From IMG/VR virus record IMGVR_UViG_3300032001_000013, positions 1 to 45,046 of that record: DNA of 45,046 bases; one strand, written 5' to 3'. A program made the position numbers and the translations under genes. How positions within the stretch are numbered: position 1 is the first letter of the stretch; every line of letters starts with the position of its first letter. This document shows positions 53-42,347 of this stretch, piece after piece. Below the pieces are notes generated by a model. The model made no database searches. It was not told the origin of the DNA and worked only from the letters and a program-made list of their open reading frames with translations. Source of the stretch: a virus. Lineage: Duplodnaviria; Caudoviricetes.

Positions 53-69
53 TGGTTCACTGAACCATT
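49..69. promoter_or_regulatory. Palindrome AATGGTTCA-C-TGAACCATT
   Basis: Perfect AT-rich inverted repeat; identical 21-mer in reverse complement at 33106-33126; both copies are associated with GGY-NN arrays. Confidence 0.7.
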
Positions 70-111
70 GACAAGCGAGGGAGGCGGCCCCCGACGTTGA
101 TCGCCTCCCCC

Positions 112-550
112 GCCTGCCGAGCCGGGCATTGCCCACCCGTGCCGATCCGTGCCCTTGCCTGCGCTGCCGCGCGATGCCCCGCCGAGCTGCGCCTTGACGT
201 GCTGAGCGATTCCTGCCCCGACTTGCCGAGCCGTGCGGTGCGATCCGTGCCGACCGAACGGCGCCCAGCCGAGCCTTGGGCTGCCTCTGCCTGCCTCACA
301 ATGGCATGCCTCGCCCCGCCTTGGAACGCCTCGCCATGCTTTTCCGGCCGAGCCGGGCCGGGCTGCGCTAGGCCCTCGAAGCCACGCCTAGCCTTTCCTG
401 CCTCGCCCAGTGCCGCATCGCCGTCCACGCCGTGCAGCGGGGTGCCACGACGGCCGCACCTTGCCTTGCCCTGCATTCCGCGCAGAGCCGAGCTGTCCGG
501 ACGGTGCCGGGCCAAGCCACGCGATCCGATCCCGTGCCGGGCCCTGACGT
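112..550 (-). repeat. GGY-NN pentamer array 1 (about 7 units; putative non-contiguous guide RNA)
   Basis: 5-nt periodic GCC-NN on + strand (GGC-NN on -), units separated by GGCAGG/GGCCGTC-type spacers; promoter-like TATCTT-CC-TTGATA at 563-550 on -; hairpin at about 79-110 downstream. Confidence 0.9.
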
Positions 551-590
551 ATCAAGGAAGATAGCACATCGCAGAGCATGAGGAGGGCCG

Positions 591-1689: not shown

Positions 1690-2241
1690 TCAGCGGCGAG
1701 CTGCTTCCTGGACGCCGCCTGCTTCCTCCAGCAGCTTGATGATGGCGCTGAGCTGGTCGCGAGAAGGCTTCAGGTAGATGATGCCCTGGGCGAGCCGCAC
1801 TGGATCTTCGCCGGCGGCCCCGATCATGGTGTTGCAGTCCCGGTCGGCGTACCCGCGGATCCTCTTGGTTACGTGGTCGTGCTCGACGCACAGGGCCAGT
1901 CCGTTGGGGCCGTTGCCGCTGGGAATTTCGCCGCAGATGTCGCAGCGTCCCGAGCGCCCGGCGACTTCAGCTCGGTACTCCTCGATGGTGATGCCGTAGA
2001 GGCGCTGAAGCTGATAGCTGCGCAGGCGGTCCTTGTTGGCCTCGCGCCAGGCTTTATGCGCCTTGCTGACCTCCTCCTTGTGACCTTGCCGGTGCAGGCC
2101 TGCGTCCTCGCGTGCCTTGACCGCGCAGGTCCAGCCTTTGCTCCTGGCGGCATTCCTGTTGACCTGAACCGTTTCGCCGCAGCCCGAGCAGTAGGCCGTC
2201 CGGTTCGTTTCGTCGATCCGGCTGATGTAGTGCTGGCCCAT
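1690..2241 (-). CDS. Endonuclease VII-like (His-Me finger) nuclease, likely free-standing homing endonuclease
   Basis: YGIT..EY, CDICG, VEHDH..RIRG..CN motifs; N-terminal CxxC. Confidence 0.85.
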   Translation of the reverse strand: MGQHYISRIDETNRTAYCSGCGETVQVNRNAARSKGWTCAVKAREDAGLHRQGHKEEVSKAHKAWREANKDRLRSYQLQRLYGITIEEYRAEVAGRSGRCDICGEIPSGNGPNGLALCVEHDHVTKRIRGYADRDCNTMIGAAGEDPVRLAQGIIYLKPSRDQLSAIIKLLEEAGGVQEAARR

Positions 2242-3020: not shown

Positions 3021-4040
3021 ATGACCGAGCTTGCCACCGTTGCGAACGGGCAGCTGGCGCCGGCGGCACCGCTGGGCGGCCTGCGTCCCCGCGTTGCCTC
3101 GCGCAAGAGCGACGACTACGTTGCCCAGATCGAGGCCCGCCGGGCGCGCTCGGCTCCGCTGACCCGCGAGGCCAAGGTGCGCAAGATGGCCTTGATCCTC
3201 TCCGACGAGCTGCACGGCTTCCGCCGCCTGGGCGTCGGCATGGTGGGCCCGATCCAGCTGAAGCTGAGGTACCAGGGCATCGTCCGCAACGTGCTCGTCG
3301 AGGACCCGGTGACGCCGGGCACCCCGGTCGAGTACGACGTGTGGGACGACCTGGGCCAGGCCTACATCCTGAGCGGCACCGAGGGCGAGGTCCGGGTCAC
3401 GCCCTTTGAAGGCAAGCGCATCCCGGTGCGGTTCTTCCGCATCGCCAGCCGCCCGGCGATCCGCAAGGAGGACCTGTTCTACCTCCGGATCAACGCGGTC
3501 GAGCAGGCCCAGGACGAGACCAAGCAGGCCATCCTGAAGCAGGAGGACGCCCGCCTGCTGGTTATCCTCCAGGCCGCGGTGACGGACTACGCCACCCGCC
3601 CGGACCACGTGGTCACGCCGAACCACAACATCACCGAGGCCTCGGGCTATCTCACCCCGGGCAGCCTCTACTCGGCTGTCGCGATGACGGACCTGCACGA
3701 GCTGCCGTCCGCCCGGCTCATGATCAACCCGTTCGACTTCCGCGACATGTACCGCTGGGACATCAACCAGACGGGCTGGGCCTTCAAGGACCGCGTGGTC
3801 GCCGGCGAGACGATCACCAGCTTCGGCGAGTTCCAGATCCAGCGTTCCATCATCGTGCCGCAGGCCAAGATCTTCCTGACCCCCGAGCCCAACTTCCTCG
3901 GCGTCTTCCCGGTCCTCTACTCGCTCGACGTCGAGGAGAACCACATGGTCGAGGCCTTCTGGAAGGGCTGGGTGTTCGACGAGATGGTGGCTATGTCCAT
4001 TTTGAATCCAAGGGGAATAGCCACGATCACCAAGAGCTGA
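3021..4040 (+). CDS. Major capsid protein
   Basis: GPIQLKLRYQGIVRNVL, YRWDINQTGWAFKD, YSLDVEEN...KGWVFDE closely resemble Bxz1/cluster C MCP; strong RBS. Confidence 0.93.
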   Translation: MTELATVANGQLAPAAPLGGLRPRVASRKSDDYVAQIEARRARSAPLTREAKVRKMALILSDELHGFRRLGVGMVGPIQLKLRYQGIVRNVLVEDPVTPGTPVEYDVWDDLGQAYILSGTEGEVRVTPFEGKRIPVRFFRIASRPAIRKEDLFYLRINAVEQAQDETKQAILKQEDARLLVILQAAVTDYATRPDHVVTPNHNITEASGYLTPGSLYSAVAMTDLHELPSARLMINPFDFRDMYRWDINQTGWAFKDRVVAGETITSFGEFQIQRSIIVPQAKIFLTPEPNFLGVFPVLYSLDVEENHMVEAFWKGWVFDEMVAMSILNPRGIATITKS

Positions 4041-9799: not shown

Positions 9800-9852
9800 C
9801 GCCATGTCCGGACAGATTCCCCGTGATCTCCCCGTGACTTGACATGCAGTGC

Positions 9853-9867
9853 TAGGTTTATTGATAT
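9853..9867 (+). promoter_or_regulatory. Phage promoter motif TANNNT-N2-3-TTGAYA (representative copy)
   Basis: Copies at 4483, 5028, 5919, 6674, 7889, 8422, 9853, 11252, 15090, 16881, 24481, 32752, 34492 (+) and 563, 26910, 30033, 37478 (-). Confidence 0.8.
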
Positions 9868-9890
9868 TGACCGACCAAGCGGGAGAACGG

Positions 9891-11249
9891 ATGAGAACCG
9901 AGACGGAGATCGTTGCCGCCATGAGAGCGGCGGCGCAGCCAGGACGGCTGCGCCTGAGCAGGCAGGTCACCGCGCAGCTGCGGGGCCTGACCGATGAGCT
10001 GGCGGCAGCCCGGCCGGCCTCGGCGCAGGAGTACGCGCGGTTCCTGGCCATCGGCCGCCGCGGCATGGTCCTGCCCGAGGCGGAGCTGGCCGGCCGGATC
10101 CGGCATGCCACCATCCTGGTGACCGGCGGGACCGGCTGCATCGGCACTGAGCTGATCCGCCAGCTGGCTGAGCGGCGGTCGGGCCTGGGCTGCCTGGTCA
10201 GCGTCAGCCGCGGCATCACCAGCGGCTACCCGCGTCACCCTGAAGTCAAGTACCGGCATGCCGACATCTGCGATCGCGCTGCCATGAATGAGCTGATGGC
10301 CGAGATCAGGCCCGATCTGGTCTTCCACGTGGCGGGCCAGCGCGACCCGGGCCTGGCCGAGACCGAGGTGCACCGCACCGTGACCACCAACGTGCTCGGC
10401 ACCCGCGCCGTGCTGGTCGCGGCGGTACGGGCCGGCGTCCCCCAGGTGGTGTGCTGCTCGACCGGCAAGGCACTGCGGCCGTACTCCCCTGACGTGTACA
10501 CGGCATCCAAGCGCGCGGCCGAGTGGGTCGCCTCGGGCGTGGCCGCTGCCACCCCCATGCTGGTCTCGGCCAGCCGGTTCACGCACGTGATGGACAACTC
10601 GATCATCTGCCGGAAGCTGTGGCGCTGGGCGGAGGCCGGCCGTGCCATGCGGCTGCACGACCCCGGTATCGCGTTCTACGTCCAGTCGGCCCGGGAGTCC
10701 GCCCAGCTGCTGCTGCTGGCGGTCCTGGAGGCCCGCCGGGGCGAGTTCCGGGTCAACGCCCTGACCGATCTCGGCTGGCCGGTGAGCCTGCTGGACGTCG
10801 CGCTGGGGACGCGGGCGGCGGCAGGCCCGGAGTCGCCGGTCTACTTCAGCGGCTACGACCGCGGGTACGAGGAGACCCCGTTCCCGGGCCTGTACGACCC
10901 GCTGACCGCGGGCGGGGTGAGCCCGCTGCTGAACATGTTCGAGGCCGCCGCGAAGACGGGCTGGGCCGAGGGCCAGGCCGACACGTTCCGGCTGGGCTTC
11001 GCGCCCGACCGGCAGGCCCTCAAGCGGCTGGCCGTGCTCGCCGAGGTCTGCGGCAGCACCACGAACCCGGGGCTTGCCCGGGGCTGCCTCGATGAGCTGT
11101 CCTGGGCGCTGCTGTCCGCGGCCACGCGGGCGGTCCCGCCCGCGCTGCTGGCCCGCTCGGCCAAGATGGCCCGGCAGCAGGAGCCGCTGAGCGACGTGCA
11201 CCGCCGCGTCCTGGAGGTTATCGAGTCAGCGACCGGTGTATTCGGGTAA
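9891..11249 (+). CDS. CapD-like NAD-dependent nucleotide-sugar epimerase/dehydratase (polysaccharide biosynthesis)
   Basis: ILVTGGTGCIG Rossmann motif, VFHVA, NVLGT, STGKA, YTASK. Confidence 0.85.
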   Translation: MRTETEIVAAMRAAAQPGRLRLSRQVTAQLRGLTDELAAARPASAQEYARFLAIGRRGMVLPEAELAGRIRHATILVTGGTGCIGTELIRQLAERRSGLGCLVSVSRGITSGYPRHPEVKYRHADICDRAAMNELMAEIRPDLVFHVAGQRDPGLAETEVHRTVTTNVLGTRAVLVAAVRAGVPQVVCCSTGKALRPYSPDVYTASKRAAEWVASGVAAATPMLVSASRFTHVMDNSIICRKLWRWAEAGRAMRLHDPGIAFYVQSARESAQLLLLAVLEARRGEFRVNALTDLGWPVSLLDVALGTRAAAGPESPVYFSGYDRGYEETPFPGLYDPLTAGGVSPLLNMFEAAAKTGWAEGQADTFRLGFAPDRQALKRLAVLAEVCGSTTNPGLARGCLDELSWALLSAATRAVPPALLARSAKMARQQEPLSDVHRRVLEVIESATGVFG

Positions 11250-11290
11250 GCTAGGTTCATTGATATTCATTCACCCGAGGGGGACTACTC

Positions 11291-12634
11291 ATGACTGCCG
11301 CGCCGGGGCGACCCTGGGCTGAGGGCGAGCCTGCCCACCAGTTCCAGGTACCCGCGTACCAGCCGCCCGCCCATCTCCTGGGCCCGTTCCGCGTTCCCGA
11401 CGACACCAGCACCCAGGTCATGCCCGCCTGGCGGCCCGAGGAGACCGTCACGGCGCCGCTGCCGCTGGGCCAGCCCGAGCCGGTCCCGGCGCCGCGGCGC
11501 AACCGGATCATCGCCCTGGTGCCCGTGCACAACGGGGAAGCGGACCTGGCCCCGGCCATCGAGGCGCTGCTGGCCCAGACCCGCCCGCTGGACGAGATCA
11601 TCATCATCTCCGACAACTCGACAGACGGCACCGTGGCGGTCGCGAGCCGCTACCCGGTGACGGTGATCGAGTCGGCAGGCAACAGGTACCGCAAGTCCGG
11701 CGCGCTGAACCAGGCCTGGCGCAAGTACGCCCAGGACGCCGACTACGTGGTGTGCATCGACGATGACACCCGGCTGCCGCCGTTTGCGGTGGAGCACTTC
11801 GAGGCCGAGATGACCGAGGATCCCGGGGTAGGTGGCATCTCCTGCCAGGTGGTGATGCGGGGCAGCAGCATCCTGAGCCGGATCCAGCGGGCCGAGTTCG
11901 CGCAGAGCACGGTGCTGAGCCGGAACCGGGGCTGGGTCCGGGTCATCTCGGGCACCGGCTGCATCTTCCGCAACGAGGCGCTGCGCGAGGCCGCCCTGCT
12001 CCCGGGCCAGGAGGGCCCGTGGACCTACCGCAGCGTGGTCGAGGACTACCACCTGACCTTCCAGCTGCGCAAGCTGGGCTGGCTGTGCATCATGAGCAAG
12101 GACGTGTGGTGCGACACCGGCAGCATGCCCTCGGTGAAGGCGCTGTGGCACCAGCGGGTCAAGTGGCAGTCCGGCACGATCGGCGACCTGATCAACTTCG
12201 GCTTCAACCGGATGAACTGGCGCGAGTGGATGCAGCAGTTCTACGGCCTGATCTGCGTGGCCTTCTGGATCCTGTGGATCTCGCTGAACGGGACCGCCTG
12301 GGCCCTGGGCGGGCTGCACCCGAACATCTGGTGGGTCATCTTCCCGGCGATCTTCGCGGGGACCGAGTGCTTCTACGCCTGGCACATCCACGGCCGCGAC
12401 TGGAAGGACATGCTGCTGGCCGTCTCCATGGTCAAGATGATGATCTACACCTTCCTGTGCATGGGCTGGAACCTGGCCAGCTGGTGGATCATCCTGCGCG
12501 GCAAGCAGAAGGACCTGTGGGCTGCCCAGTACGTCGCCGACGGGACAGACAAGGTACTAGGGGAGGGAATGAGCGATGCCGGACCTGCCAGCGAAGAGGA
12601 CCGTCGTCCCGCGCCGCAGGCGCTATGCCGTTAG
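11291..12634 (+). CDS. Processive GT2 glycosyltransferase (cellulose/PNAG synthase-like)
   Basis: PVHN, DNSTD, KSGALN, DDD, VED, QRVKW (QxxRW-like) and C-terminal TM helices. Confidence 0.9.
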   Translation: MTAAPGRPWAEGEPAHQFQVPAYQPPAHLLGPFRVPDDTSTQVMPAWRPEETVTAPLPLGQPEPVPAPRRNRIIALVPVHNGEADLAPAIEALLAQTRPLDEIIIISDNSTDGTVAVASRYPVTVIESAGNRYRKSGALNQAWRKYAQDADYVVCIDDDTRLPPFAVEHFEAEMTEDPGVGGISCQVVMRGSSILSRIQRAEFAQSTVLSRNRGWVRVISGTGCIFRNEALREAALLPGQEGPWTYRSVVEDYHLTFQLRKLGWLCIMSKDVWCDTGSMPSVKALWHQRVKWQSGTIGDLINFGFNRMNWREWMQQFYGLICVAFWILWISLNGTAWALGGLHPNIWWVIFPAIFAGTECFYAWHIHGRDWKDMLLAVSMVKMMIYTFLCMGWNLASWWIILRGKQKDLWAAQYVADGTDKVLGEGMSDAGPASEEDRRPAPQALCR

Positions 12635-13697
12635 CGCGGCCCTGGGGACCGTGGCAGCGGCCGTGCTGGGCCTGGCGCTCTGGTCGATGGCCGGCGTGAC
12701 CGCGGCCTACCGCGGGGTGACCCCGGCCGCCGCGGCAGCGGCAGCGCCCGCGCCCCGGCCGCTGGTGATCTACCACGCGCCGTTCGTCAGGTACGAGAGG
12801 GCCAGGGCCGTGCCGGTGCTGGTCTACCACGAGATGAACAACGGCTGCGCGCCCTCGGCGCCGGTCTGCAAGGCGGCCGACCCGGAGACGGTGAGCACCG
12901 CCCAGTTCCGGGCCGAGATGGCCTACATGTTCAGCCGCGGCTACCACACCGTCACCATGGCGCAGTACCAGGCCTGGCTGGGCAACCGCAAGACGAGGCT
13001 GCCGTCCAGGCCGTTCCTGATCACGGCGGACAACGGCATCTGGAGCTTCCTGTCCGGGGCCCAGCCGGTCCTGGCGGGCTACGGCTACACCGCCGTGGCC
13101 GCGGTCGTGACCGGGTTCGCCGACGGGGCTGGCGGGCACTGCGCGCCGCGGATCGGCGGGGTCAGCGTCCAGCCGGGCTGCCCGCGGGACAACGCCGGCT
13201 GGGATGCCACCTGGGCCCAGCTCCGGTCGCTCGACCCGAGGGTGTGGGAGTTCATCCTGGAGGCCGGGCCGTCCGGCCACTACGTCCAGGATTACGACCC
13301 GCACTGCCGGATGTTCGACGCCTGCCTGCTGCCCGGCGAGACCGTGGCGCAGTACCAGGTCCGCCTGGCGGCCGAGCTGGGCGGCGGCGAGACGGCGCTG
13401 GCTGCCCGCCTGGGCAGCCGCGTGAACCCCGGCGGCTGGGTGGTCCCCTACAGCGACCTGGGCTACCCGCGCTGCGCGCAGGGCGACTGCACGCCGCAGG
13501 ACGCCACGATCCCGCAGGGCTACCTGGTGAATTACGCCGATGCTCACTTCCGGGCCGTCTTCGTCGAGGATGCTTCCCGCAATGCCATCGGCCACGAGCG
13601 GTTCCGGTTCGACGTCAACGGCCCGGACACCGAGGCCTCATTCCAGAGCCAGCTGGCGGCTTTCACCGCCGCGGGCGCATTCGACAGGAGCAGGTAA
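12576..13697 (+). CDS. Polysaccharide deacetylase-like secreted/anchored protein
   Basis: VPVLVYHE, GYHTVT, FLITADNG (TFDDG-like); N-terminal TM. Confidence 0.75.
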   Translation: MPDLPAKRTVVPRRRRYAVSAALGTVAAAVLGLALWSMAGVTAAYRGVTPAAAAAAAPAPRPLVIYHAPFVRYERARAVPVLVYHEMNNGCAPSAPVCKAADPETVSTAQFRAEMAYMFSRGYHTVTMAQYQAWLGNRKTRLPSRPFLITADNGIWSFLSGAQPVLAGYGYTAVAAVVTGFADGAGGHCAPRIGGVSVQPGCPRDNAGWDATWAQLRSLDPRVWEFILEAGPSGHYVQDYDPHCRMFDACLLPGETVAQYQVRLAAELGGGETALAARLGSRVNPGGWVVPYSDLGYPRCAQGDCTPQDATIPQGYLVNYADAHFRAVFVEDASRNAIGHERFRFDVNGPDTEASFQSQLAAFTAAGAFDRSR

Positions 13698-19132: not shown

Positions 19133-19147
19133 TTACTATGGTTCCTA

Positions 19148-19273
19148 GCCAAGGTGAGGCTAGGCATCGCGTGTCCTGGCACGGATGGGCATGGCGGGGC
19201 CCGGCAGGAGTGGCTCGGCTTGGGGTGGCTCGTCTAGGAGTTGCCCGGCGTGGCTGGGCAGGTACGGCAAGGA
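19148..19273 (+). repeat. GGY-NN pentamer array 2 (2 units)
   Basis: Strict 5-nt register with GGCAGG separators; units match the flanking genes when decoded. Confidence 0.9.
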
Positions 19274-19297
19274 AGTCACGCCAGAGCGGAGTCTGCC

Positions 19298-32029: not shown

Positions 32030-32742
32030 TGCCCCCGTCCGTCGCCACCGTCTCCGGCGAGACCGCTGAGTTCGTCATCAGCGGCGACCCCGACCGGATG
32101 ATCATGCTGGTGCCCAGGCTGAACGGCAACCGGGCCCGGAACCTGGCCAACGCCGCGGTGCGCGAGGCCCGCAGGATCATGCCCAAGCTGACCGGCCGGG
32201 CCGCCCAGCGCCTGGTGCCGGTCTACGGCTACGGGTTCTTCGGCATCCACTGGGCCGACGCGTACGTGTACTTCCAGGAGAAGGGCATCCGGCCGTTCAC
32301 GATGACCCACCTGGCCGGCAAGACGATCCCGATGTGGGTCGACGACCCGACCGGCACCGAGAAGCAGCGCAACCCGAGGGCGCAGACCCGCACCACGATC
32401 TCGGGCAAGCCGCAGGTGCTGATCTTCCGCCGGGCCGCGCAGATCGGGGCGACCAGGACGATCCGGACCAAGGTCGCCGGGCAGTGGGAGGTCAGGACGG
32501 TGCCCGCGTCCTACCCGGGCGCCCCGGGCCGGATCGGCCGACGCGAGGCCGCCATCCCCTGGACGACCGCGGGCCGCCAGGGCGGCCAGATCGCCCAGGC
32601 CAACATCGGCGTCCGCTGGCGCCACCCCGGCCTGGCCCCGCGATTGTTCATGAACCGGGCGATCACCTTGGCCGCTCAGCAGGGCGGCATCCTGCCGACG
32701 CGGATCTACGTCGCTGACAGATTCTGGAGATCGCATTTCTGA
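32029..32742 (+). CDS. Putative neck/tail-completion protein
   Basis: MPKLTG, Q..G..PFTM, WRHPG..PR.FM motifs typical of gp10-like neck proteins. Confidence 0.65.
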   Translation: MPPSVATVSGETAEFVISGDPDRMIMLVPRLNGNRARNLANAAVREARRIMPKLTGRAAQRLVPVYGYGFFGIHWADAYVYFQEKGIRPFTMTHLAGKTIPMWVDDPTGTEKQRNPRAQTRTTISGKPQVLIFRRAAQIGATRTIRTKVAGQWEVRTVPASYPGAPGRIGRREAAIPWTTAGRQGGQIAQANIGVRWRHPGLAPRLFMNRAITLAAQQGGILPTRIYVADRFWRSHF

Positions 32743-32766
32743 TTTTCCTGATAAGGTTCATTGATA

Positions 32767-33770
32767 GGCCTGGCCGGGCCAGGCGAAGCCTTGACAGCGC
32801 GTCAAGGCATCGCGTGGCAGGAAAGGCTAGGCGTGGTGCCGATCGCCCGGCGTCGCTCTGCTAGGCAGTCGAGGCGCAGCCCGGCGCGGATGGCCGGGCC
32901 GGGTAGCGCCAGGCAGAGCAGGGCAGGGCAGGATGGGCCCCGCTCGGATGGCTGGGCATGGCAGCGCAGGAAAGGAATGTCTTGGCCTGGCCAGGCGAGG
33001 CCCGGCGGGGCAGTCATGGCTCGTCTAGGCATTGCGGGCCAGGGCGAGGCGAGGCAGGCGATTGCTCGGCGGGCCGTGGCGCCGCAGGGCAGGTCTAGGC
33101 AGGCTAATGGTTCAGTGAACCATTAAGGCAGCCAAGGCATGCCGGGGCGAGGCTCCGCGGGGCATCGCCGGGTATCGCAAGGCCGTCATCGCGGGGCACC
33201 GCCCGTCCTGGATGGGCATGGCGCCGCGCGGCGCTGCCAGGCAGGATTGGCGAGGCTTGGCCCAGGCATTGCCGGTCGTGGCACCGCCCGGCAAGGCAGG
33301 AGAGTCTGGGCTAGGCGGGGCATCGCTCAGCGCGGCGAGGCACAGTGCCGCGAGGCCGGGCGGGGCTAGGCAGTCCAGGCATCGCTCGTCGCGGCCAGGC
33401 ATGGCCCGGCGAGGCGCAGCGAGGCAGTCCCGGTATCGCTCGGATGGCTTGGCCAGGCAAGGCCAGGCAGGGCCGTCGAGGCGTGGCCTTGCGCCGCCTG
33501 GACCGCAACGCATCGCAAGGCTGGGCAAGGCAGGTGCAGCCTGGCAAGGCAGTGCCTGGCGGCGCAACGCGCAGCCTGGCCAGGCGAGGCAGTCAGGTCG
33601 TGGCGAGCCTTGGCCCGGCAGTGCCCGGCCCGGCAGCGCCCGGCACGGCATGGCAGGAGATGCTAGTCAGGGCCAGGCTCGGCTCGGATCGCGCGGCTCG
33701 GCGCGGCAGGAGCAGCTTGGCATGGCGGGGAGAGGCTGAGCCCGGCTAGCGGGGCAAGGCGCGGCAGGTA
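32767..33770 (+). repeat. GGY-NN pentamer array 3 (about 18 units)
   Basis: Starts right after promoter TAAGGT-TCA-TTGATA (32752); internal palindrome at 33105-33125. Confidence 0.92.
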
Positions 33771-33789
33771 CGGGGCCCCGGGAAGCAGT

Positions 33790-34494
33790 GTGACTACTCC
33801 TCAGCCGTTCGTCCCGGCGTATCCGGCCGGCTTCTTGCGCGTCATCAAGGCCGGCTCGGTCGACGCGCTGAACCAGGCCTTCGCGATCGCCTACCCCGAG
33901 CAGGATGCGGCCGGCGGGATCCAGGCGCCGTACATCAGCATCGACTACCCGGTGAGCCAGGGCGCCTACCCGGGCATCTGGGTGGACTTCGAGGTGGCCA
34001 TGCTGCGCACCGCGGGCATCGACCACATCGAGATGCTGGATGACGGCACGGTGCTGGCCCGCTGGCGGTTCCAGGGCTACGCGGTGTTCACCACCGTGGC
34101 GCTGAACAGCAACGAGTGCGACGGGATCTACGACCAGCTGGTGGCGCTGACCGCGTTCGCCGCTCAGTCCGAGGTGCCCTCGGTCTTCCGCGATGTCATC
34201 GACTCCAACGGCCTGGTGAGCACCACCTGGAGCTACGACACGGTGGAGGCCCGCGGCCAGTCCGCGGCGCCGGGCACGCCCTGGGGCACCACCGAGATCA
34301 TCTACGAGCGCGGCATCGCGCTGAAGGTGATCGGCGAGTTCGTCACCAACCCGGCCTCGGCCGTCTACGAGCTGGTGCCGCTGAGCAAGATCATCATCAC
34401 CGGCCAGATGCAGATCGACGACGTGAACGCCGGCGACCCGTTCATCCTGACCATCCCGCCGGAGACCCCGCCGTTCACCCCGCTTCCCGGCTAA
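33790..34494 (+). CDS. Putative tail terminator protein
   Basis: SIDYP...YPGIWV motif; position before sheath. Confidence 0.65.
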   Translation: MTTPQPFVPAYPAGFLRVIKAGSVDALNQAFAIAYPEQDAAGGIQAPYISIDYPVSQGAYPGIWVDFEVAMLRTAGIDHIEMLDDGTVLARWRFQGYAVFTTVALNSNECDGIYDQLVALTAFAAQSEVPSVFRDVIDSNGLVSTTWSYDTVEARGQSAAPGTPWGTTEIIYERGIALKVIGEFVTNPASAVYELVPLSKIIITGQMQIDDVNAGDPFILTIPPETPPFTPLPG

Positions 34495-34505
34495 GGTTCT
34501 TTGAT

Positions 34506-35324
34506 AGCATGGTGGTCCTGGGCTGGGCGTCGGTGGCACATCACGTCCAGGCCGGGCGTGGCCGTCCAGGCGCGGATAGCCAGGACGGCGCGTCCAGGCG
34601 CTGCCGCGCTCGGCAGTCCTGGTGTCGCGAGGCGGGGCAGTGCGTCGCTGGTCGCGGCAAGGCAAGGCCCGGCTCGGCCGTCGCGGTTAGTCTGCGCGTG
34701 TCGGTGCTGGGCCCGGAGCGCTAGGCTTCGCTGGGCCGTCGGCGCATCGCTATGCGTGGCCCGGCTTGGCGTGGCAAGGCCTCGCATCGCAAGGCAAGGC
34801 CGTCGAGGCTTAGCTGGTCTGGGCACGGGATGCCAGGCACGGCGGGGCGCGGCCGTCCAGGCTGGTCTAGGACATCCCGTCGAGGACTGGCGTGGCCGTC
34901 AAGGCCTGGCGGGTCCGGGCCCGGTACCGCATGGCACAACTCGGCGCGGCCGGAGATGCTGGGCTAGGCGAGGCATCGCGGGGCGCGGCGAGGCTAGGCC
35001 GTCTGCGCGGGGCTCGGCAAGGGTCGCTCCGCTCGGCAGGGCACGGCGAGGCCGGGTTGGCAAGGGTCGCCCGGGTGGCGTTGCATCGCTTGGCCGTCCT
35101 GGTATAGCCCGGCGTCGCATTGCGAAGCGGCGCGGGGCATGGCCTGGCTGTCGAGGCTGAGCTTGGCGCTGCGTCGCTTGGCGCTGCGAGGCTGGGCGCG
35201 GCCGTCCTGGCCCGGCCCGGAGGCGCAACGCGGGTCCAGGCGAGGCAGGGCTAGGCCGTCTAGGCACGTCCCGGCGGGTCGGGGCTGAGCTAGTCGCCGC
35301 CTGGCAAGGTGTGGTGAGGCAGGA
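34506..35324 (+). repeat. GGY-NN pentamer array 4 (about 15 units)
   Basis: Follows promoter TAAGGT-TCT-TTGATA (34492); GGCCGTC separators. Confidence 0.92.
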
Positions 35325-35377
35325 GGTTCTCCGGCCCGGGAAGACGTGAGGATGTCTTCCCGGGAGGAGAGCCCACG

Positions 35378-36931
35378 GTGACGGTTCCGACTTTTTCGTC
35401 TTATCAGCCTCCTGGCGTCTACGTCTCCGACGTCACCGGGCCCATCGTCACCACGACCGGGGTCTTCCCGCAGATCCTGACGCTGGTCGGGCCGGGGCTC
35501 GGCTACCGCACCGCGGTCCAGACCTTCCAGATCTTCGCGGGCACGGGCGCCATCCTGAACTTCACCGGGGTCTTCACCACCGCCCAGGCCGGGCCCCCGG
35601 CGATCGCCGCGCCCGTGATGACGGTCACCGGCTCCAGCACCATCCTGGCCCAGGGCACCGACTACAGCTTCACCGTGACCCCGGACCCCTCGGGCAACGC
35701 CGCGCTGGCGGTCACCTCGGTCTTCCGGGTCGGCACCTCGACCAGCATCGCCGACGGCGCCCAGGTGACGATCACCTACAACTACGCCGACGTCACGTAC
35801 TACCAGCCGCAGCTGTTCACCAACTTCCCCGCGGTCACCAACGCCTACGGCCAGCCCCTGGTGGCCGCCGCGCCGACCCAGGCCAACGTCAGCCAGGTGG
35901 CCAACCCGCTGAGCTACGCCGCGCAGACCGCATTCGGCGCCGGGGCCAACCAGGTCATCGCGTGCGCCTGCAACCCGGCGGACGGCACCCTGGAGCAGCA
36001 GCTGCTCGCCGCGTACACCAAGCTGGCTGCCGTCTACGACTCGACCCTGGTGGTCCCGGTCTTCCCCGACTACCTGGGCGGCTTCGCGGGCGGCTCCGGC
36101 GTGTCCCAGTACGCCCTGACGCTGGCCACCGACCTGGACGGCGCGATGCAGGGCGCCAGCGTCAACGGCTACCCTCGGATCGGCTTCTTCGGGCTGCCGG
36201 TGGACTACTCCGAGTCGGCGCTGCCGGTGCCGAGCTTCTCCGCCTCGATCGCCGACAAGCGGCTGGTGCTGGCCTACCCCAAGGCCCTCCAGGCCTACAA
36301 CCCGCTGACCCGGCAGACGTTCAGCGCCTCGGGCTGCTACCTGGCGGTCGCGCTGGCCGCGGTGCTGTCGGCGCTGCCGGTGAACACCGGGCTGACCGGC
36401 CAGGCGGTGCCCGGCTTCGCGGGGCTGACCGCGGCCGAGCTTCAGGCGATGACCCCGGCGTTCATGAACAGCCTGGCCCAGGCCGGGACCACGGTGGTCT
36501 ACCAGAGCCGCAACGGCGGGCTGACCTGCCGGCATGGCCTGACCACCAACATGAGCGCGCTGAACACCCGGGAGATCTCACTGGTCCGCCAGGCCGATGC
36601 CCTGCTGGTGTCCCTCCAGGCCGGGATGGAGAACTCCGGGCTGATCGGCACGCCGATCACCGCGAACACGGTGGCCACGGTGCAGGGCGCGATCGTCTCG
36701 ATCCTCCAGCAGGACATCGCCCAGGGCATCATCGCCAGCTACACGAACCTGGTGGTCGCCCAGCAGCAGTACCCGGGCGGCGACCCGACGGTGATCACCG
36801 CGACCTTCTCCTATGTCCCGAGCGTCCCGCTGAACTACATCGAGGTCACGTTCAGCATCGACCTCAGTGCTGGCCTGGTGTCCCAGCAGTCACAGCAGAA
36901 CGCGGCAGCTCCCACCGTCTCCGTGACCTGA
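35378..36931 (+). CDS. Contractile tail sheath protein
   Basis: Y..PGVYV N-terminus; RHGLTT, REISLVR..D, P..PLNYI.V.F C-terminus. Confidence 0.92.
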   Translation: MTVPTFSSYQPPGVYVSDVTGPIVTTTGVFPQILTLVGPGLGYRTAVQTFQIFAGTGAILNFTGVFTTAQAGPPAIAAPVMTVTGSSTILAQGTDYSFTVTPDPSGNAALAVTSVFRVGTSTSIADGAQVTITYNYADVTYYQPQLFTNFPAVTNAYGQPLVAAAPTQANVSQVANPLSYAAQTAFGAGANQVIACACNPADGTLEQQLLAAYTKLAAVYDSTLVVPVFPDYLGGFAGGSGVSQYALTLATDLDGAMQGASVNGYPRIGFFGLPVDYSESALPVPSFSASIADKRLVLAYPKALQAYNPLTRQTFSASGCYLAVALAAVLSALPVNTGLTGQAVPGFAGLTAAELQAMTPAFMNSLAQAGTTVVYQSRNGGLTCRHGLTTNMSALNTREISLVRQADALLVSLQAGMENSGLIGTPITANTVATVQGAIVSILQQDIAQGIIASYTNLVVAQQQYPGGDPTVITATFSYVPSVPLNYIEVTFSIDLSAGLVSQQSQQNAAAPTVSVT

Positions 36932-36933
36932 TT

Positions 36934-37458
36934 GCCTGCCCTACCCTGCACAGCTAAGCGCTCCAAGCCAAGACGAGCGCAGACGGCCATGCCCTGCCAA
37001 GCGTTCCGTGCCCGGCCTCGCCTTGACGGCCATGCCCAGCTCCGCGAGCCCGCGCCTAGCCAGGCCTCTCCGGCCGAGCGCTCCACGCCAAGCCCTGCCA
37101 AGCACGGCCTAGTCGTGCCATGCCGCTCCGGCCTCGCCACGCTCAGCGACGCCAGTCCTCGCCGAGCCAAGCGACTCCTGCCGAGCCGAGCGCGGACATC
37201 CCGGGCCGCGCCAATCCCGGCCAGGCCGCGACTGCCCGGCCCTGCCTAGCCAGGACTAGCCGCCCTGGCCCCGCGGTGCGTTTCCGGCCCCGCCAAGCCC
37301 CGCCGTGCCTAGCCACGCGACGCCCAGCAATGCGCTGACGGCCGTGCCGGGCACAGCGGCCCATGCCGGTCCAAGCGCAGCAACACCTGGACGGCCTCGC
37401 CTCAGCGTGCCCTGGCAAGCCATCTAAGCCAGGCCCGGATGTGCGGCGCCAAGACTGC
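36934..37458 (-). repeat. GGY-NN pentamer array 5 (about 10 units)
   Basis: GCC-NN register on +; promoter TAGAAT-CA-TTGACA at 37478-37465 on -. Confidence 0.92.
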
Positions 37459-37531
37459 TCTGGCTGTCAATGATTCTAGTGCATCTTCGGCAGCCCCGGG
37501 AAGAAGCGACGGATAGACCCGGGAGGCTGCG

Positions 37532-38065
37532 GTGCCCAATACTCACGTCCGTGTAGTCGGCTCCGGCTATACCGTTTTGAGCTACAACAACAAGCCCATC
37601 GCTTTCTGCGAGGGCTGGGAAGACTCCGGCCAGCGCGCCTTCTCCGATGCCGGGCAGCCGTTCCAGTTCATCCAGCCGATCGGGTACAGCCACCCCATCG
37701 AGATCGCCACGTCCCGCGTGCTGGCCGGCGGCACCCTGATGCTGACCATCCGCGAGCTGTGGAACCAGCCGGTCTGGTGGCAGCTGGCCGGCCTGGCGGG
37801 CACCTGGTCCATCGTCGACATCTTCGCCGCGCTGGCCGCCAACCCGAACTACGTGACCGCCTCGCTGATCATCAAGCCGCCGGGCACCGCGCATCAGCCG
37901 GGCAGCTGGCGCGGCAAGCTGTACCAGAACGTGGTGGTGGTGGACATCAATGATGGCGACACGGTGACCGTCGGGGCGCTGGCCGTGACCAAGGGCATCA
38001 CCGCGGCCTACACGCACTACATCCCGCTGAACTCCAACCAGTACAGCCCGCTGACCGGCCAGTAG
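37532..38065 (+). CDS. Tail tube protein
   Basis: Follows sheath; 177 aa; RVVGSG, HPIEI.T, GTL.L...ELWN. Confidence 0.8.
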   Translation: MPNTHVRVVGSGYTVLSYNNKPIAFCEGWEDSGQRAFSDAGQPFQFIQPIGYSHPIEIATSRVLAGGTLMLTIRELWNQPVWWQLAGLAGTWSIVDIFAALAANPNYVTASLIIKPPGTAHQPGSWRGKLYQNVVVVDINDGDTVTVGALAVTKGITAAYTHYIPLNSNQYSPLTGQ

Positions 38066-40872: not shown

Positions 40873-41258
40873 GCGCGGTCCAGGAGCTGTGCCTGTCGGT
40901 GCTGATCTTCCGCGAGAACCGGCGGCGCCAGGAGGACCGGCTCCAGGCGGCGCTGTGCGCCGTGGTGGCTTCCGGCAAGGGCGACCCGGCGAAGGCCTGG
41001 CCGGAGTACTTCGGCGAGGCCCAGGCCGACGACGAGGAGTCCTTCCCCGAGACCGGCGCCGACATGAGCCAGTTCACCTGGGAGCAGCCGGACCAGGAGC
41101 GGATTCAGGACGAGCTGGAGATGCTGATGCGCGGCGCGCGGGTCACCCTGCGCGACGGCGAGCCCGCGGAGCCGCCCGAGCCGCCGCCCCAGGCCGCGCT
41201 GCGCCCGATGGTCTCCAGGATGGGCCCGGCCACGGCAGAAGAACTGGAATGGTCCTGA
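40779..41258 (+). CDS. Tail assembly chaperone -1 frameshift extension
   Basis: GGGAAAA at 40779-40785 in X XXY YYZ phase; -1 frame open to 41258. Confidence 0.75.
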   Translation, partial: GKRIGPDGAGARLDLDIDLAWRRGLLAGPSLSAVQELCLSVLIFRENRRRQEDRLQAALCAVVASGKGDPAKAWPEYFGEAQADDEESFPETGADMSQFTWEQPDQERIQDELEMLMRGARVTLRDGEPAEPPEPPPQAALRPMVSRMGPATAEELEWS

Positions 41259-41261
41259 TCT

Positions 41262-41665
41262 GCCTGCCTTGCCCTGCCACGCCTATCTATGCTGCTCCGA
41301 GCCCTTGCCTGCCTTGCCCCGCCTTGCCGTGCCAGGCTTCGCCGTCCGAGCCGCTCCTGCCTAGCCTCGCCATACTGCGCCTGTCCTCGCTATGCTGCGA
41401 CTCGCCGCGCCTCGCCAGGACTGCCCTGCCGCACCGTGCCTCGCCCAGCTGTGATCGCCCTGCCCAGCAGCGCCTTGACTGCCTTGCCCGGCATTGCCCA
41501 GCGGCCCTTGCCGGGACAGGCCCGGACATGCCAGGACTGCCTCGCCTCGCCCCGCCCTGCCCAGCCAAGACTGGCCATGCCGTCCCTTGACGGCCGCGCC
41601 CTGCTGAGCCTTGCGGAGCCGGGCCCCGCCTACCCGGGCCCTGCCGTGCCTTCGTCTCCTGCCTG
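41262..41665 (-). repeat. GGY-NN pentamer array 6 (about 7 units)
   Basis: GCC-NN register on + with GACTGCC separators; downstream of - gene 41808..42347. Confidence 0.88.
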
Positions 41666-41797
41666 GCCGCTGCCGGGCAGCGGCATCGCGAGCCAGCGCT
41701 TCCTGTCCGGCTTGCCGTGGCACTGGCTGCACCCGCAGTGGGTCTCATGCGTGCCCGGGGCCGAGCAGTGCGGCCCGCAGTCCGGTGTGCTGCCCAT
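41630..41797 (-). CDS. Possible small Cys/His-rich protein, 55 aa
   Basis: MGSTPDCGPHC...HCGCSQCHG; runs into array 6. Confidence 0.4.
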   Translation of the reverse strand: MGSTPDCGPHCSAPGTHETHCGCSQCHGKPDRKRWLAMPLPGSGQAGDEGTAGPG

Positions 41798-41807
41798 CCC
41801 CCGGAGC

Positions 41808-42347
41808 TTACGCCCCGTGGCTGAACTGCACTCCCGGGACCTCGTTCTGCCCGTCGGGGCCGTGCACGATGACTTCGAGGTCCTGATCGGTCACCACCGG
41901 GTCGCCGAACTTGTCGACTTCCTCCCGGCCGACATCGTGGCTGCCGCAGCTGTGGCAGGTGGACCGCCAGTGCCGGCCGCGCAGTGCCCGGCCGTGCGTG
42001 ACCGGGTGCAGGTCGTTCTGGAGCCGCCAGATCGTGTCGATGTTGAACGTCTCCAGCTGCTCGGCGGCCTCCAGGGCCAGCTCGGGCCGCTGGTAGGCGG
42101 CGTAGAGCCGCCGGTACCGGTACAGGGTGCCGATGCTCAGGTCCATCGCGTCGGCCAGCTGGATCAGGGTGTAGGCATCGGTGAAGCTGTCGACGCACTG
42201 CCCGAACCGCCAGGCGGCGCGTACCGAGTCCTGGCCCGCCTTGACGAGTCCCGCGTAGGACAGCTCCAGCGTGTTGAGGGTGCCCGCGTCTACGCGGCGT
42301 CCTGGCGTGGTGGTCCTCCGGCTGCCCGGTGTGTCGGCGTTATTCAT
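41808..42347 (-). CDS. HTH plus Zn-ribbon protein upstream of array 6
   Basis: LADAMDLSIGTLYRY HTH-like; CHSCGS; RBS GAAGGA; promoter-like TATTTT-CC-TTAGTA at about 42387. Confidence 0.75.
   Translation of the reverse strand: MNNADTPGSRRTTTPGRRVDAGTLNTLELSYAGLVKAGQDSVRAAWRFGQCVDSFTDAYTLIQLADAMDLSIGTLYRYRRLYAAYQRPELALEAAEQLETFNIDTIWRLQNDLHPVTHGRALRGRHWRSTCHSCGSHDVGREEVDKFGDPVVTDQDLEVIVHGPDGQNEVPGVQFSHGA

Follow-up and report, generated by a model that had tools for sequence, protein, structure and literature searches.

A candidate phage guide RNA unit whose decoded target lies in the N-terminal helix of bacterial TIR_2 genes

A short unit of a repeat array, lying between two genes of a soil phage, raises the question whether it can be read as a guide RNA and, if so, which genes such a guide would silence. 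The DNA that carries it is a virus record of 45,046 bases with a GC content of about 70%; this whole stretch is called the window here. The original prediction was that the variable dinucleotides (NN) of the unit, when reverse-complemented, spell a helix motif of actinobacterial TIR domains, and that this can be checked by a search of TIR_2 genes for the gapped pattern. The coordinates of the unit, of the arrays and of the genes to which we refer are collected in Table 1.

Table 1. Arrays, guide units and reference genes of the window (positions count from its first base)
Feature	Position	Strand	Remarks
Major capsid gene	3021..4040	+	phrog_2522, NF042927; query used to find related phages
Tail sheath gene	35378..36931	+	phrog_2839; downstream neighbour of array A4
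Array A1	60..560	-	GGY periodicity and parsing
Array A2	19135..19275	+	GGY periodicity and parsing
Array A3	32755..33775	+	GGY periodicity and parsing
Array A4	34490..35324	+	shared leader, then 16 units by parsing; flanked by a phrog_2748 gene and the tail sheath gene
Array A5	36930..37470	-	GGY periodicity and parsing
Array A6	41255..41760	-	GGY periodicity and parsing
Focal guide unit (A4)	34567..34611	+	45 bases, 10 NN, two 2-nt GG scaffolds at 34574-34575 and 34583-34584
Upstream separator GGCCGTC	34560..34566	+	1-nt phase shift
Downstream separator GGCAGTC	34612..34618	+	follows the focal unit
First A1 unit	449..558	-	reads SNF2 helicase motif I, DISARM DrmD included; three 2-nt GG scaffolds
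Last full A2 unit	19210..19263	+	gene next downstream of A2: 17/20 with its G003 orthologue, 14/20 with the window's copy
A3 unit	33595..33658	+	decodes to a Walker A motif; matches are generic P-loop NTPases
A4 unit	35099..35152	+	reads LIPVI[DE]GGIL in forward sense; best NN match is a ThiF/E1-like gene
Last A4 unit	35261..35324	+	20/24 nt to the first codons of the window's own sheath gene; 20/24 to the best G002 site
Hairpin closing A4	35325..35373	+	strong, z -7.2; predicted 3' end or terminator

The window is a fragment of a larger phage genome, because the relatives found with the capsid protein include complete records of 154-166 kb. It also holds other virion genes besides those of the capsid and the sheath. 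Its closest relative is G001, the capsid protein of which is 99% identical, with 84% identity of the DNA there. We infer an actinobacterial host for the phage because of the GC content, the match of the Vipr protein of G001 to proteins of Gordonia and Mycobacterium phages, and two Streptosporangiaceae names among the TIR homologues.

Six intergenic regions of the window carry GGY at a 5-base period, and 57 units of at least 7 NN were parsed from them. GGC makes up 352 of the parsed scaffolds, while the NN positions use all 16 types; the tandem pentamers with a conserved GGY-type scaffold and variable NN that characterize a VIPR vrRNA array are thus found here. The separators are words of the GGC[AC]G(TC/GA/GT) type, each shifting the phase by one base, and of the 33 clean units 17 have a length of 5n+4, the others falling short of such a length by one or two bases. 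The 1-nt offset and the succession of units without spacer, which mark the staggered type, are likewise present. The units abut via the 7-nt separators, and the per-unit structured 3' tail of type II vrRNAs is absent from the window arrays; hairpins are predicted at the ends of arrays A4 and A1. A similar leader, recognizable in a weak alignment, stands at the start of A1-A5 and of three G001 arrays. It consists of a TAnnnT box followed by TTGATAG-like letters (34490-34510, 32750-32770, 19135-19150 and, on the minus strand, 560-575 and 37465-37485), and it is possible that it serves as a promoter or start signal. A scan of 32600-37600 for sigma-70 promoters and terminators returned 0 and 0, Rfam gave 0 matches to the DNA, and Tandem Repeats Finder fails to resolve the arrays. 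Judged by their sequence, the window arrays have the layout of VIPR guide RNAs, staggered form included.

Scaffolds shortened to a 2-nt GG are a regular feature of the window arrays. They occur in 16 of the 33 clean units, and the next base is always a purine (A 11, G 7, counted with a parser that gave a bonus to GG before A); the parser-free count between canonical scaffolds is 14 for GG+A and 6 for GG+G. The focal unit, with the letters CA ggc GC gg AT agc CA gg AC ggc GC gtc CA ggc GC tgc CG cgc TC, is two bases short of ten full repeats, as are only 2 of the 33 clean units. Among the 605 parses enumerated for it, 4 contain two short scaffolds while every 3-nt scaffold in them is canonical, and the earlier parse is the only one of these in which both short scaffolds are GG. 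The assumption of two 2-nt scaffolds, the positions of which rest on the assembly sequence, is therefore borne out as one of the 4 best parses and as the sole one with GG twice, in arrays where short GG is common. Our reverse-complemented NNs are identical to those of the original prediction and give the same reading, D-R-A-W-A-V-W-I-A-W. Together with its separator the unit is predicted to fold into a hairpin (z -2.9).

The gapped-pattern search had been set beforehand, with the absence of any match to a TIR gene counting against the prediction, and it returned exact, wobble-aligned matches in 6 distinct TIR_2 genes. In detail, the exact scan of metagenome contigs yielded 12 stretches, of which 4 are non-TIR and 8 lie in frame in TIR genes, where they read DRAWAVWIAW. 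These 8 matches come from the 6 distinct genes, which have 61-83% DNA identity around the site. The skipped base falls on the wobble position of the codon in all 8 and is variable. PF13676 (TIR_2) was above the gathering score in all 7 ORFs that were scanned; the eighth, that of L010, shows no difference from L005/L009 in the stretch that was compared. In L002 and L012 the site lies about 18-30 codons after the likely start. At the TIR site of L013 the contigs of 4 sequencing runs give low-depth coverage that does not include the codon in question. No TIR gene was matched when 185,579 GTDB genomes were scanned for the exact pattern; the single match there is non-TIR and antisense to a helicase-like ORF, and we regard it as chance. 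A search with two mismatches allowed, in 401 genomes from the phylum to which a Dermatophilaceae MAG belongs, gave 7 new matches, 3 at the TIR motif and 4 elsewhere, against 4 for the reversed control (one of the non-TIR matches came from genome G099, which also supplied one control match in the scan of unit 41534 mentioned below).

The reading was also compared with the protein family. Of 120 TIR-NB-ARC homologues, 7 are matched 10/10 by the focal guide and 85 reach at least 9/10, whereas of 3000 shuffles of the guide 1 reached 9 and none reached 10 in that set. Because the set was seeded with the exact match L013, the 97 lower-ranked homologues were counted apart, and 68 of them still reach at least 9/10. 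The analytic bound for a random array-like word to match 10/10 anywhere in the set is 4.7e-7, or about 2e-4 after correction for 114 unit orientations and 4 parses, a figure in which the number of recognisable families is left uncorrected. Six of the ten guide columns are invariant in 116 of 116 aligned proteins. The likeness to DRAWAEWIAW holds in that the helix of TIR_2 is the one matched; the consensus itself gives 9/10, since the guide has V in place of E at one codon. This is the sole departure from the consensus, and V is the second commonest residue at that column (20/116). The family is not exclusively actinobacterial, as L006 has a GC content of 0.50. These data support the view that the focal unit is a VIPR-type guide whose decoded target would be the N-terminal helix codons of TIR_2 genes.

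The matched genes have several architectures, namely TIR-NB-ARC-DUF7779 (with TPR fused or in the next gene), TIR-WD40, TIR with an unassigned domain, and one fragment. In the original prediction such TIR domains are often fused to NB-ARC-TPR, and 3 of the 6 distinct genes are of NB-ARC type, L006 and L013 by Pfam and L002 by its P-loop and DUF7779, followed by a TPR gene; the others are of the remaining kinds. L013, P0031 and P0055 pass the cut-off of NF040586, the FxSxx-COOH system type. PADLOC gave weak or partial TIR-domain matches to the target proteins and none for 4 of 9; a full match to a PADLOC or NCBIfam defence model was not obtained for them, and the TIR_2 targets have neither a complete PADLOC system match nor an assignment to Thoeris, Avs or bNACHT. 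The FxSxx-COOH type of TIR_2/NB-ARC/TPR protein (NF040586; PMC7159879) is the target family of the focal unit, and its conflict role is, in the part of that work used here, a computational prediction: TIR-AP-ATPase-TPR genes of FxSxx type are placed there in predicted conflict systems (Kaur et al. 2020, PMC7159879). Related STAND (NACHT) proteins are described as antiphage in the portion consulted of 10.1101/2022.07.19.500537, and the TIR-NB-ARC-TPR target family is absent from the covered passages of a TIR survey (10.64898/2025.12.03.692087). An immune role is predicted for the TIR-NB-ARC(-TPR) and TIR-WD40 targets.

Several other units of the window and of related phages can be decoded in the same way. 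The last units of A4 and A2 match the start of the next gene, with mismatches to the window's own copy, and relatives match equally well or better. Against the window's own sheath gene, a skip of 1 gives unit 35261 its 20/24, other skips give 16, 15 and 16, and the shuffle maximum is 17. A unit of L099 reaches 19/20 with skip 1 and 15 and 17 with other skips, so that the 1-nt skip of VIPR vrRNA arrays is seen in both units; a G001 unit matches a gene of G005 at 19/20. Such end-unit matches could reflect exclusion of relatives, self-regulation or a trace of array insertion. On the evidence of these alignments the VIPR code is valid in the clade of the window, in a few units. Most units had no match above shuffles in the phage DNA that was searched, which amounts to 3.4 million letters over both strands, and a target can be assigned to only about 5 of the 57 window units.

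Outside the TIR family, the first A1 unit gave 6 matches in 5 of 22 genomes, all of them SNF2 motif I, against 0 for the control. Four of the six were scanned: one is DrmD-like with 592 bits (a truncated ORF; the cut-off is 610), and the other three pass no defence-family cut-off. This guide reaches 10/11 in 91 of 120 DrmD homologues, where the maximum of 2000 shuffles is 8. A unit of L017 reaches 10/10 in 96 of 120. The guides of L017, L022/L023 and L195 read SNF2 motif I too, and Walker B is read by a guide of L018 in which two scaffolds are short (8/10 in 105 of 120). Guides to SNF2 motif I or II are thus seen across several phages (window 449-558 on the minus strand, L017:2032, L018:2458, L022, L023, L195:1459); a helicase-like gene of phage G002 likewise fits the Walker B guides of L017 (18/22) and L018 (19/24). 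A further guide that ends in T-[DE]-G-W-[DE] in the forward reading is kept among relatives (window 396-448 on the minus strand, L095:7436, L022:3751, L023:201), and we take it to resemble a helicase motif. We also tested 282 further units, from 29 of the 31 viral loci that were found by their separator pattern. None of them matched a TIR domain, and three passed against DrmD (1 of 564 shuffles did), only that of L195 at a motif. One of them, an L191 guide (parse position 2381), reads the Walker B motif of the TIR-NB-ARC family to which the focal unit points, with at least 7/9 in 110 of 120 homologues and 0 of 564 shuffles. Four of the defence-motif guides are decoded via 2-nt GG scaffolds.

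Unit 35099 gave 12 matches in 11 of 381 genomes, against 1 in the control; 1 is the ThiF gene, which has weak PADLOC E1-E2 matches, and 7 are presumably thiolase-like (2 mismatches). This unit and a guide at L195:1094 read one site from opposite strands (9/9), which fits DNA targeting, and window 41477-41534 and L200:1961 also share a site on opposite strands (8/9). Unit 33595 gave 9 matches in 401 genomes against 0 in the control, mostly ABC-type and AfsR-like NTPases and one not evidently Walker A; read as an NB-ARC guide, it scores 8/12 in the TIR set against a shuffle maximum of 7. Two guesses from motifs seen by eye failed against their controls: unit 33188 as a kinase guide is rejected, with 2 matches against 6 in the control (251 genomes), and unit 41534 as a CD-NTase guide is not supported, with 2 against 4 (391 genomes).

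A guide of this kind would need the Vipr protein, and the Vipr profile found no vipr in the 45-kb window, so the arrays may be orphans. A single-sequence Vipr scan of viral contigs gave nothing. The arrays of G001 share the separators of the window, and one of them follows a 330-aa ORF and a 158-aa ORF. Below an E-value of 0.01 the 330-aa ORF matches a single PDB sequence, that of SUSP1 Vipr (36pp, with E 0.0055 and a profile E of 0.00022). The 158-aa gene after vipr has a similar gene in L080 and no Pfam match, and its label "vap-like" reflects its position. The vipr and capsid genes of G001 are about 40 kb apart, and vipr lies in the direction that the window does not span. The separator-pattern scan recovered 31 viral loci with a match to the Vipr profile at 20 of them; these loci and G001 imply that such arrays normally travel with vipr. 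We infer that this phage has a vipr gene outside the fragment. In L073 and L080 vipr stands directly after the capsid gene. Another vrRNA layout is found in the more distant relatives L078, L065, L064 and L073, with separate units of about 8-10 repeats and a hairpin after each; the units of L078 and L065 are preceded by a conserved leader.

We consider it probable that the focal unit is a VIPR guide which directs the phage's own Vipr to repress predicted immune TIR genes of the host. By analogy with the published SUSP1 system, the array would be transcribed during infection and cut into units at the separators, and Vipr would coat the unit with one protomer per repeat, the repeats that lack the third scaffold base included; in the SUSP1 structure, as described in the consulted part of 10.64898/2026.04.26.720927, each protomer has a pocket for that base. 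Next, the ten NNs would base-pair with the coding strand of the TIR gene, some 18-30 codons from its start, and thereby block transcription of that gene. Because codon positions 1-2 of a near-invariant helix are read, a single guide would suffice for many paralogues, and synonymous changes would be a poor means of escape. A broader proposal, of which we are only half persuaded, is that large staggered VIPR arrays serve this clade of actinobacterial phages as a programmable library of anti-immunity guides, directed at invariant codons of host defence families (TIR, NB-ARC, DrmD-type SNF2, E1-like).

One would argue that the guide is real and that its TIR target is carried by a competing mobile element, such as an integrative element, a satellite or prophage cargo, which would be ordinary VIPR warfare between elements. 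The published targets of VIPR are satellites, prophages and other VIPRs, other guides of the window and its clade match phage genes, and the TIR gene of L012 lies within 3 kb of an integrase, an HARE-HTH gene and an HTH-TPR gene; the position near the integrase keeps this explanation alive. However, the exact target was sought in viral contigs, with E or V allowed at codon 6, and gave 0 matches, a regex for the motif found none in phage records G001-G005, and the TIR genes of L002 and L005 stand amid regulator, methyltransferase and transporter-like ORFs, as judged by eye. We therefore regard a mobile target as rather unlikely, and silencing of a TIR gene would still be counter-defence even if that gene resided on such an element. 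Chance is a more general objection, as 57 units in two orientations and several parses were confronted with many conserved families, 4 of the 12 exact metagenome matches and the sole GTDB match are non-TIR, and the by-eye motif guesses for units 33188 and 41534 failed. Moreover, no homologous TIR guide was found: of the 4 stretches that a pattern scan of viral contigs gave, the 2 inspected are non-array chance matches. Nevertheless the bound for a random word remains small after its correction, the deviation of the guide from the consensus is the commonest variant of the family, and the guide of L191, from an independent phage, aims at the NB-ARC domain of the same family. A chance origin thus appears very unlikely.

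It could also be that the arrays are solo guides which load the Vipr of a rival phage and park it on multicopy host sites, so that TIR silencing is incidental. The lack of vipr in the window agrees with such a decoy, and solo and decoy vrRNAs are described in the consulted part of 10.64898/2026.10.15.759431. Yet the window is a fragment from a clade with genomes of about 160 kb, the vipr of G001 lies beyond the corresponding span, each of the 21 genomes searched has 0-3 TIR_2 matches and not hundreds, and the wobble alignment points to selection on a coding target. We find little reason to believe in a decoy. Decay of the unit, by which two scaffolds of a former TIR guide would have lost a base, would explain why so few clean units are two bases short and could fit the self-hairpin; however, all 20 NN bases still match real genes exactly, and short GG scaffolds are common, restricted to a following purine and also present in other well-matched guides. 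We therefore hold a relic to be extremely unlikely and retain the view that the unit is a guide against predicted host immune genes.

Phages are known to counter host defence by proteins or RNA mimics, as with Tad sponges and RNA anti-CRISPRs, and by phage CRISPR arrays against host genes. The route proposed here shares with them the disabling of host immunity and differs from them as a programmable, family-wide transcriptional silencing by a gapped guide. As far as the passages used of 10.64898/2026.04.26.720920 describe VIPR (SUSP1, the P. fulva type II system and staggered arrays), the window resembles it in the GGY/NN pentamer tracts of about 7-14 repeats, the 1-nt skip on the wobble base, the targeting of both strands and the 1-nt staggered units, and vipr and vap are present in its closest relative G001. 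In contrast to published VIPR, the units of the window number 57 in six arrays spread among virion genes, the scaffolds are degenerate (CGC, AGC, TGC, GTC) and frequently a 2-nt GG, and no structured tail is seen per unit. The targets differ as well. In the consulted parts of 10.64898/2026.04.26.720920 and 10.64898/2026.10.15.759431 the natural targets are satellites, prophages, viral sequences, vipr genes, other vrRNAs and host REP decoys, whereas those decoded from the window include bacterial TIR, NB-ARC and SNF2/DrmD motifs. The solo vrRNAs of F5 satellites and VIPR-null phages in the latter report, in the passages considered, are similar in having guides away from vipr, host-genome targets and early-codon, wobble-aligned sites in conserved residues; their host target is a non-coding REP DNA decoy, and that of the focal unit the coding start of predicted immune genes. 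The word "TIR" is absent from the main text of both target papers, and our literature search found nothing on VIPR guides against host defence genes, although the supplementary target tables (Data S3) could list host genes; 10.64898/2026.10.21.760802, in the part consulted, treats array detection only. Therefore the VIPR system and its staggered layout are already known, and a class of host TIR-gene targets is new relative to the published VIPR targets that we found.

VIPR has so far been described as serving in conflicts among mobile elements or, once bacteria have captured it, as a host defence. If our reading is true, a third use would be counter-defence guided by RNA, directed at an entire gene family and hard to evade by synonymous changes, and the guide would be evidence from the phage side that actinobacterial TIR-NB-ARC-TPR proteins, so far only predicted to be antiviral, are so. 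The roughly 50 undecoded guides would then form a list of candidate defence genes, including ones not yet known, and the arrays, once decoded, would show which host genes a phage has to silence. Working 2-nt scaffolds would extend the VIPR code.

Several other genes of the window can be mentioned. Directly upstream of A6 lies a 174-aa ORF (41808-42332, minus strand) for which no family was found and whose Atlas matches below 0.9 are viral hypothetical proteins. An Endonuclease VII gene (1690-2241, minus strand) is missing from the near-identical contigs L016 and L051, where the alignment has a gap at 1662-2302, and it is likely a mobile insertion. The head module harbors a dual-specificity phosphatase-like gene (955-1401), and a polysaccharide cassette at 9849-13697 consists of an epimerase/dehydratase-like gene, a GT2 glycosyltransferase and a third ORF without a Pfam match.
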